A DNA stretch of 30,071 nt, from positions 1 to 30,071 of the forward strand of contig JAHPZE010000040.1 in the NCBI GenBank assembly GCA_019058365.1, written 5' to 3'. The notes beneath the pieces were generated by a model. It saw only the letters and a list, made by a program, of their open reading frames with translations, was not told where the DNA came from and searched no databases. This document shows positions 15,335 to 20,802 of the stretch, piece by piece. Numbering within the stretch: position 1 is the first letter of the stretch; each line of letters begins with the position of its first letter. This DNA is from Promethearchaeota archaeon (lineage in GTDB: Archaea > Asgardarchaeota > Lokiarchaeia > Sigyniarchaeales > SOKP01). The translations under genes and the position numbers were made by a program.

Positions 15335-15709
15335 TTGTCAGAATTCGAACAAAAAGTATTGAAATTGCTTGAAGATATTAATGGTAAACTTGATAAATTA
15401 TTAAAACCTGAGCTCTCTTCCCTAAGTTCGGTACCAACACCTTCGGTTGCGTCTGCTCCAGTAGCTACTACAGTCAAACCCTCAACAATTGTTGAAAAAC
15501 AAGAGGAAGAAGCACGTATGGAAGAGAAACCTCCTGTTGAAGGCAGAAGAATCTGTCCAGAGTGTGGAGGGACAGCTTTTGCCACACATGAAGACAGAGA
15601 CCAAGTATTGCATCAAATGGGCGGCGTAAAAATTTATGCAAAATGTAATTTATAAAAAGTTACATGCAGAAAAAAATACATTTGTAAACAATGTGGATAT
15701 GAATACTAA
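15335..15709 (+). CDS. Short helix + P/S/T-rich linker + Zn-ribbon protein, interrupted by an in-frame 30-nt stop-containing insertion (pseudogene or recoded/spliced gene)
   Basis: AGGAG at 15323-15327 and TTG start. The frame reads ...CPECGG...KIYAK-CNL*KVTCRK-KYICKQCGYEY* (TAA 15653-15655, final TAA 15707-15709). The second CxxCG knuckle lies after the internal stop. Confidence 0.75.
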
Positions 15710-15740: not shown

Positions 15741-15771
15741 TTTTCTTTTTATTTTCTCTTTTTTTTTTTTT
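15741..15771 (+). terminator. Oligo-T archaeal terminator-like tract
   Basis: TTTTCTTTTTATTTTCTC plus 13 T, about 30 nt after the 15709 stop. Confidence 0.5.
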
Positions 15772-15930
15772 AATGATTCTTATTATATATCTTCCTATAA
15801 GCAAATTCAGTTAGATTTTTAATTTCATTATACTTTAAATTCTTAATCATTAATTTTATTCGTATATACGGTGTAATATCTAATTCCTCAAAAGAGAATT
15901 AAGACGTGGATTCAATACATTAGAAACTTT

Positions 15931-19794: not shown

Positions 19795-20802
19795 TTATTT
19801 TTCGCGCCACTCAACGCCACATTCCCCACAACGGTATTTTTTACCGTACATACGTGGGTAATCGAGAATGATATTCCCTTTATCAACACTCTCATGAATC
19901 ATGAGAGGGTTTTCATTACCACATTCAGGACACTTCCTACGTCCATCTATATGCTCAACTGTTAAGATAGAAGCATCAGTTTTTCCGGGTATTCCAGGAG
20001 CTGCTCCTGAAGCTCTAACTTCAGAAATTTCTTCTTTTACTTCTTTTGGAGATACTTCTTCAACCTTTGATTTAAATTCTGGTTGGATCGCTTTCGCAAT
20101 TCTGTCATCTTCATCTTCTCCTTCTAATACTGATTCTGCTTTTAGTTGTACGGCGTCAGACTCCTTATAATTTTCTCCTTTGCCTAAAGCAGCTATAAAT
20201 TCAGTGTCATCACCCTCTTCAAAGATTGTTTCTTGTTGCAAACCAGCTCTTTCAGCATCTATAGAACGTGCCCATTGTCCAGCTTTAACTTTTTCAGTAG
20301 TAGTACATGCATTTCCTTGCCAGATATAAACTTTATTTCCTAAATCGGCAACATAACAATCTTCTGAGTCTAAGGACTCTCTTTTAAAGGGAACTTGAAT
20401 CATTTTCATGGCATTGATATCCTCAAATTCTTCTGAGGAAACGCGATAAAGCACATTTTTCCACTCATTAAATTGTGCGAAATCTCCAGTTGTGACATCT
20501 TTAAGTAGTGTTTTTGCATAATTTTTCTCGACAATTTTCATTGCTCCCATAGGATTTATTGCCTTAAGGAATTCTTTTGGTTCTTGTCCTTGATCTACCG
20601 TGATTATCTTTGCTGCTCCTCCACGTTGTTGATCGAGTGTTCTTGCTTGAGCAGCACCAGCAGTTTTTTCATCTACTGAGCATTTATTCCCAATCCATAT
20701 GTAAATTGTTTTCTCATCATCTAATAAATAAACATCCCCGCTTGAAAAGATTAGCTTATTGATTTCCTTTAAATTTCCTTGGTCAATCATAAAAAGTTTC
20801 AA
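19795..20802 (-). CDS. Two-domain gelsolin-like protein with an acidic linker and C-terminal Zn ribbon
   Basis: Two gelsolin repeats (SGDVYLLD...IYIWIG...EK..QGQEP.EF and SEDCYVAD.G.KVYIWQG...EK...EEGDD.EF), then CPECG...CGECG. TTG start. Confidence 0.9.
   Translation of the reverse strand: MKLFMIDQGNLKEINKLIFSSGDVYLLDDEKTIYIWIGNKCSVDEKTAGAAQARTLDQQRGGAAKIITVDQGQEPKEFLKAINPMGAMKIVEKNYAKTLLKDVTTGDFAQFNEWKNVLYRVSSEEFEDINAMKMIQVPFKRESLDSEDCYVADLGNKVYIWQGNACTTTEKVKAGQWARSIDAERAGLQQETIFEEGDDTEFIAALGKGENYKESDAVQLKAESVLEGEDEDDRIAKAIQPEFKSKVEEVSPKEVKEEISEVRASGAAPGIPGKTDASILTVEHIDGRRKCPECGNENPLMIHESVDKGNIILDYPRMYGKKYRCGECGVEWREK

Follow-up and report, generated by a model that had tools for sequence, protein, structure and literature searches.

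The interrupted zinc-ribbon gene

How a zinc-binding site can be encoded with one half upstream and the other half downstream of an in-frame stop codon is the question raised by a small zinc-ribbon gene at 15335-15709 (+) of a 30,071-nt stretch of Promethearchaeota DNA (GenBank assembly GCA_019058365.1, contig JAHPZE010000040.1). This stretch, hereafter the window, is the entire contig C15 of its host genome (4.74 Mb, 29.5% GC, 54 contigs), which is labelled G000; other G numbers denote further genomes of the genus. An earlier note on this DNA had proposed that a hairpin within the gene is a micro-intron of the mRNA, cut by the archaeal endonuclease EndA, and comparison of ten interrupted orthologs supports that proposal: as judged from sequence, 15642-15671 is very probably a bulge-helix-bulge (BHB, tRNA-type) mini-intron in the pre-mRNA of the zinc-ribbon protein. 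We infer that the transcript is cut and its ends joined, on the grounds of a fold that is conserved and covaries, the restoration of frame and codons in the ten orthologs, selection on the second exon and the presence of the enzyme genes.

The gene begins at a TTG codon (15335-15337) with GGAG at 15324-27, 8 nt upstream, and orthologs carry ATG or TTG at the same codon. The open reading frame (ORF) from this TTG meets an in-frame TAA at 15653-55 after 106 aa; beyond it the same frame is open until TAA 15707-09, encoding ...KVTCRKKYICKQCGYEY. The first zinc knuckle (CPEC) lies upstream of TAA 15653-55 and the second (CKQC) downstream of it, and translation of unspliced mRNA would yield a 106-aa product ending in ...YAKCNL, without the second CxxC. 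Once the intron is removed, 114 aa are encoded, made up of an N-terminal helix, an S/T/P/A-rich linker and a 4-Cys zinc ribbon, with a predicted junction peptide of AKKYICKQCGYEY. The letters at 15635-15709 were exactly as first quoted, and removal of 30 nt from any start between 15640 and 15644 was confirmed to give ...YAKKYICKQCGYEY followed by the stop. The gene and the parts of the proposed intron are as follows.

15335-15709 (+): whole gene, delimited by ORF reading, ortholog start codons and protein searches
15335-15641 (+): exon 1, ending ...TAT GCA A and holding knuckle CPEC
15636-15639 (+): 5' strand of helix H (AUGC), pairing with GCAG at 15666-69
15640-15642 (+): 5' bulge AAA, with the predicted cut between 15641 and 15642 (BHB rule, PMC2738675)
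15642-15671 (+): proposed 30-nt BHB intron, composed of 1 bulge base, a 9-5-9 hairpin, the 4-nt 3' strand of H and 2 bulge bases
15643-15665 (+): inner hairpin h', with a 9-bp stem (15643-51/15657-65, one G.U) and the 5-nt loop ATAAA (15652-56)
15653-15655 (+): in-frame TAA within the hairpin loop
15666-15669 (+): 3' strand of helix H (GCAG)
15670-15672 (+): 3' bulge AAA, with the predicted cut between 15671 and 15672
15672-15709 (+): exon 2, AAAAA TAC ATT TGT AAA CAA TGT GGA TAT GAA TAC TAA, holding knuckle CKQC and the stop

Interrupted and uninterrupted orthologs

Orthologs were sought in 54 genomes of the genus with the read-through protein as query, and the 3' end of every copy was read. 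The gene was found in 48 of the 54 genomes, as 49 copies, and a DUF1667 gene and/or a radical-SAM gene adjoined the ortholog at 33 of 35 loci checked. The alignment for presence or absence of the insert, suggested in the earlier note, divided these copies in two: 39 of the 49 are uninterrupted, reading ...KIYAKKY[IV]C[KR]xCG... to the stop, and 10 bear an insert of 29, 30 or 32 nt at one of two sites 18 nt apart.

Site A (between YAK and KY; after GCN AA): G000, G005 and G015, 30 nt
Site A: G023, 32 nt
Site A: G007 and G054, 29 nt
Site B (inside the CxxC, after TGY AA, 18 nt downstream of site A): G024, G006, G016 and G014, 30 nt

Each of the 10 inserts is a hairpin with one to five stop codons. 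Three genomes of separate species (G000, G005, G015) share the same insert, so it is not an assembly chimera, a possibility that had been raised at the outset. It is also carried by JGI metagenome contig Ga0307426_1000124 (6430-8301 of the retrieved stretch), which represents the same population as G005: it matches the G005 locus at 100% identity, and its identity to the window is 95.4% over 8.3 kb. A scan of metagenomes for a spliced or intronless form between the G000/G005 flanks (gap 0-30) returned the 30-nt form only, on a contig with 100% identity to the G005 locus. G065 holds two intronless copies (C168:10815-11150 and C17:10966-11322), which may reflect duplication or a mixed bin.

The lengths and contents of the inserts bear directly on whether they are translated. 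Readthrough or recoding of the TAA, which would make the ten extra residues (CNLxKVTCRK) part of the protein, accords with the in-frame insert of G000, but the 29- and 32-nt inserts are out of frame, those at site B contain 3 to 5 stop codons, with TAA, TAG and TGA all represented, and the insert peptides are not conserved; we regard this explanation as extremely improbable. Since the 29- and 32-nt inserts break the DNA frame, exon 2 can be expressed from these copies only through excision or bypass.

Fold of the insert and predicted cuts

By the BHB rule (PMC2738675), two 3-nt bulges flank a 4-bp helix, and the cuts fall between bulge bases two and three. Under the proposed mechanism the transcript would fold into a 9-bp/5-nt hairpin set on a 4-position helix, in which the last bases of exon 1 pair with the 3' end of the intron; both strands would carry a 3-nt bulge. 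An (alpha-beta)2-type EndA would then cut after the second base of each bulge, and RtcB would ligate the exons to ...TAT GCA AAA AAA TAC..., giving the 114-aa protein with both CxxC knuckles; without splicing, translation would stop at the TAA of the hairpin loop. Because of the A run at the junction, exon 1 ends anywhere from 15639 to 15643 give an identical mRNA.

The minimum free energy (MFE) fold of the G000 insert, computed with ViennaRNA, is the hairpin 15644-51/15657-64 with a TGCA/TGCA helix (-7.9 kcal/mol), as the earlier note had described it. In this 28-nt register, H consists of UGCA 15637-40 and UGCA 15665-68, joined by four Watson-Crick pairs, and the bulges are AAA and GAA. A shift by one base gives a 30-nt register, in which the pair A15643-U15665 is added to make a 9-bp stem, both bulges are AAA, and H (AUGC/GCAG) has three Watson-Crick pairs and an outer A/G mismatch; canonical cuts in this register excise exactly 15642-15671. 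The two registers lie near each other in energy (-7.4 kcal/mol for the 30-nt register, -7.9 for the 28-nt one) and have pair probabilities of 0.31 and 0.67, respectively, and both should therefore be populated. The earlier caveat that canonical cuts would remove 28 nt and leave the exons out of frame thus holds for the lowest-energy register and fails for its one-base-shifted neighbour.

Excision of those 28 nt (15643-15670) would leave a run of A8, and a -1 ribosomal or transcriptional slip would then be needed to restore the frame, with the product YAKKKY.... This register is the MFE fold with a perfect 4-bp H, and the G+A7 run on which slippage might act is identical in G000, G005 and G015. 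Excision with slippage nevertheless calls for two recoding events when the other seven orthologs need none, three lysines at this point are found in 0 of the 39 intronless orthologs, and it is the 30-nt register, not the 28-nt one, that matches the 9-5-9 architecture with an AA|A 3' bulge seen in other introns of G000. We consider excision of 28 nt with slippage very unlikely.

Predicted exon junctions and covariation

Application of the BHB rule to all ten inserts yields a 22-residue tail from HQMGG with an identical stop position in 10/10, and excision at the homologous BHB reproduces the exact intronless sequence in 7/10 orthologs. Strict geometry, with two opposite 3-nt bulges and a 4-bp helix, was found in G023, G007, G054, G024 and G006, and in these five that BHB was the best match of a strict search. 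G016 and G014 have the same geometry apart from one inner-stem mismatch, which hid the BHB from the strict search; its position in these two follows from homology with G006. G000 has strict geometry in the 28-nt register only, the 30-nt register being a relaxed form. The architecture 1 + 9-5-9 + 4 + 2 with an AA|A 3' bulge is common to the 30-nt register of G000 and the four site B introns, and the same 9-5-9, AA|A architecture occurs in introns of the RNA polymerase A' and AMP phosphorylase genes of G000 (see below).

In G054, G006, G016 and G014 the codon at the junction reads AAT in the DNA; its T is the third bulge base, is removed with the intron, and a cut after AA turns the codon into AAA (Lys). 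Asn at the junction positions was found in 0 of the 39 intronless copies, which have only Lys (or Arg at site B). Judged on these codons, it is difficult to account for the repair of AAT to AAA unless the cut falls at that bond.

The pairing of helix H is retained through sequence change at both sites, with TGCT/AGCA in G007 against TGCT/GGCA in G054 and G023 at site A, and TTGC/GTGA in G024 against TTGT/GCAA in G006, G016 and G014 at site B. Between G000 and G015 the inner stem differs by one compensatory change (U-A to A-U) and by one U.G to U-A change.

The junction codons also bear on ribosomal bypassing of the kind known from phage T4 gene 60, which had been put forward as an alternative and in which ribosomes would take off at AAA 15641-43 and land at AAA 15671-73 with no processing of the RNA. 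Matched AAA codons do flank the G000 insert, the gap holds a hairpin and a stop, and bypassing would tolerate gaps of 29 and 32 nt as well. The match fails, however, in G054, G006, G016 and G014, where take-off at AAT and landing at AAA would place Asn where the 39 intronless copies have Lys or Arg; the codon after the G000 take-off is TGT and not a stop; bypassing predicts neither the covariation of H nor the exact match to BHB cut sites; and inserts built in the same way split RNA polymerase A' and further genes of G000. Bypassing accordingly appears highly improbable as the explanation of this locus.

Selection on exon 2

Variable sites of exon 2 were counted by codon position (first/second/third) of the spliced frame and numbered 4/3/10 among site A copies and 1/1/5 among site B copies. 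Differences between close pairs were confined to third positions, at 0/0/5 for G000 and G015, 0/0/3 for G007 and G054, and 0/0/3 for G006 and G016, and the exon 2 stop is TAA in G000 and TGA in G015. This pattern of mostly third-position change indicates that exon 2 is under selection in the spliced frame, as far as sequence comparison can tell, and for G000 and G015, with their two registers, it marks the in-frame product as the one that counts.

Selection of this kind also bears on the suggestion that the insert was left behind by a small mobile element, or arose by chance, and in either case cut the gene short (106 aa or nothing) and left exon 2 to decay. The imperfect TGCAAAA/TGCAGAA terminal repeat does resemble a target duplication, and the protein is of no known function. 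Against this, the frame, length and stop of exon 2 are kept in 10/10 interrupted orthologs, inserts lie at two sites and have diverged with the fold retained, and the terminal 'repeat' is the palindromic H helix. A search of the 4.7-Mb genome for the 30-mer insert, allowing up to 5 mismatches in 30 nt, turned up no further copy, and neither did a search of the window; its 23-nt core gave only AT-rich near matches at chance level. Inactivation by such a footprint therefore seems a poor account of the locus and is very unlikely.

Several observations weigh against a BHB intron at 15642-15671. The lowest-energy register of G000, G005 and G015 predicts a 28-nt excision, which breaks the frame. In the 30-nt register, H carries the outer A/G mismatch. 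The 9-bp h' is strong, but the outer helix beside the 3' bulge is weak, consisting of just UUU/AAA (three A-U pairs). The folding energy taken alone gives z = -2.0, and 9 of 200 shuffled sequences fold as well, so the fold by itself is only modestly unusual and the weight of the argument falls on the comparative evidence. The orthologs are themselves related, and the covariation and substitution counts overstate the number of independent changes.

An alternative pairing was noted among the exon bases, where 15630-15636 and 15677-15683 are complementary (AAAUUUA/UACAUUU) and could form a longer exon-exon helix, at the price of an 8-nt 3' bulge. Two synonymous double changes in G015 perfect this helix (GAUAUA/UAUAUC and one further pair). 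Given the weak outer helix and an alternative that leaves an 8-nt bulge, the motif resembles the relaxed HBh' class.

Splicing machinery and further candidate introns in the genome

The G000 genome carries two genes with an EndA domain (PF01974; C26, region of 34764-34988, 103.5 bits, and C12, region of 101662-101910, 72.6 bits) and one RtcB gene (PF01139; C35, 567.6 bits). Asgard EndA has been reported as a broad-specificity (alpha-beta)2 type (PMC5829648), and the two EndA-domain genes fit such an enzyme.

A scan for similar hairpins splitting other genes, as the earlier note had advised, was carried out on the G000 genome with our own BHB search, and cases were verified one by one by continuity of Pfam profiles. 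Three clear further cases were recovered.

C52:2085-2114: RNA polymerase A', 30 nt; Pfam Rpb1 domain 1 divided at the junction, with profile positions 2-73 in exon 1 and positions 74-312 in exon 2
C9:32935-32964: AMP phosphorylase-like gene (Glycos_trans_3N + Glycos_transf_3), 30 nt, 9-5-9; DKHS^TGG joined, with Glycos_transf_3 resuming at profile position 11 in exon 2
C9:554-585 (-): DeoC/LacD-family aldolase, near the 3' end, 32 nt, 9-7-9; DeoC profile positions 1-220 of 229 in exon 1, joining ...GAVGV^DMGRNIFQ...

Because the A' gene is interrupted, excision must work in the organism, unless a second, uninterrupted A' gene exists. When the genome-wide scan was combined with an ORF-merging filter, the true cut did no better than cuts shifted by 1-2 nt (36 against 31-38; 9 against 8-13); this statistic is too crude for, and cannot be used in, counting introns in a genome of 29.5% GC.

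Presence and absence among sister species

A maximum-likelihood tree was built from the spliced genes; the gene is short, and this is a gene tree and not a species tree. Intron state differs between sisters in three well-supported pairs, namely G023 (site A) and G018 (none; support 100/96), G006 (site B) and G009 (none; 100/99), and G054 (site A) and G011 (none; 100/98). On the well-supported branches, the minimum number of changes is 4 for site A and 3 for site B. These differences, read from the gene sequences, point to repeated loss, gain or allele exchange as the probable history of the intron.

With little more than even confidence, we are inclined to a wider interpretation, in which the protein-coding genes of Asgard archaea would harbour a population of tRNA-type micro-introns that turns over, this gene being one of its loci. 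The introns would have entered the gene independently, at two sites 18 nt apart, would differ between well-supported sister species, and would occur even in such essential genes as that for RNA polymerase A'. Splicing of mRNA by EndA and RtcB, with gain and precise loss of introns, would then be a routine step of gene expression in the archaea most closely related to eukaryotes.

Comparison with known systems

The nearest precedent is the BHB intron in the pre-mRNA of cbf5 (pseudouridine synthase) of Crenarchaeota (Watanabe 2002; Yoshinari 2006; Yokobori 2009, PMC2738675). Shared with cbf5 are a short intron in coding sequence, a relaxed BHB, predicted cuts between the second and third bulge bases, dependence on a hetero-oligomeric EndA, and a patchy presence in related species that is interpreted as gain and loss. 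The present case differs in its phylum (Asgard/Promethearchaeota), in the gene, in having two alternative sites 18 nt apart and a family architecture of about 30 nt (9-5-9 hairpin), and in that several genes of one genome have such introns. The cDNAs of cbf5 were sequenced, whereas splicing here is deduced from comparison of DNA. In the literature searched, EndA-dependent introns within coding sequences of archaea were described for cbf5 of Crenarchaeota only, and for Asgard archaea tRNA introns only.

BHB introns of archaeal pre-tRNA at non-canonical positions are abundant in Asgard tRNA genes (PMC5829648; PMC11291895; bioRxiv 10.64898/2026.10.13.758758). They share with the introns described here the motif, the predicted enzymes (EndA and RtcB), a similar size and an inferred history of repeated gains. 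The host RNA in the present case, in contrast, is an mRNA and the helix partners are codons, and the exon bases are therefore constrained by protein and fold alike.

A eukaryotic counterpart is the Ire1-dependent splicing of HAC1/XBP1 mRNA, in which an endonuclease acts with a tRNA-type ligase (RtcB in animals) and the XBP1 intron is 26 nt. The likeness lies in the removal of a small intron from a mature-looking mRNA with a change of the protein C-terminus; the nuclease is another one, the recognition motif is a twin stem-loop, and the reaction is stress-regulated. Phage T4 gene 60, the case of translational bypassing, resembles the G000 locus in having a non-coding gap with a hairpin and stop between matched codons, and differs in that here the codon match fails in four orthologs, no stop stands right after the G000 take-off site, and the fold obeys BHB rules.

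The cut positions are unusually clean in silico at this locus, through three intron lengths, two sites and the repair of junction codons, and the differences in presence between sister species open intron gain and loss to study. Gene callers truncate such genes, here to 106 aa instead of 114 with half of the zinc site lost. If splicing is confirmed, processing of mRNA by the tRNA-splicing machinery would become a trait that can be tested in the lineage that gave rise to eukaryotes.

The encoded protein and remaining features of the window

A Pfam search of the zinc-ribbon gene product gave no significant family, and matches of the protein in the ESM Atlas were Promethearchaeota hypothetical proteins only. 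By these searches the protein appears to be a Promethearchaeota-specific hypothetical, with a zinc-ribbon module that is found again on gelsolin and coiled-coil proteins. An Rfam search of the window matched no family. Downstream of the gene, one further feature was recorded.

15741-15772 (+): T-rich tract beyond the stop of exon 2, where transcription probably ends, as judged from sequence

The spliced tail had been likened to a domain borne by the gelsolin of the window, and the gelsolin-repeat protein encoded at 19795-20799 (-) (Pfam Gelsolin, 1.6e-28) does end in such a paralogous tail (GRRxCPxCG...GKKYxCGxCGxEW). Two others occur in G000, near 1845 (-) of contig C21 and near 88732 (+) of contig C26, and none of the three has an insert. 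Several zinc-ribbon paralogs, in frames of 200-380 aa, are present in each genome of the genus.
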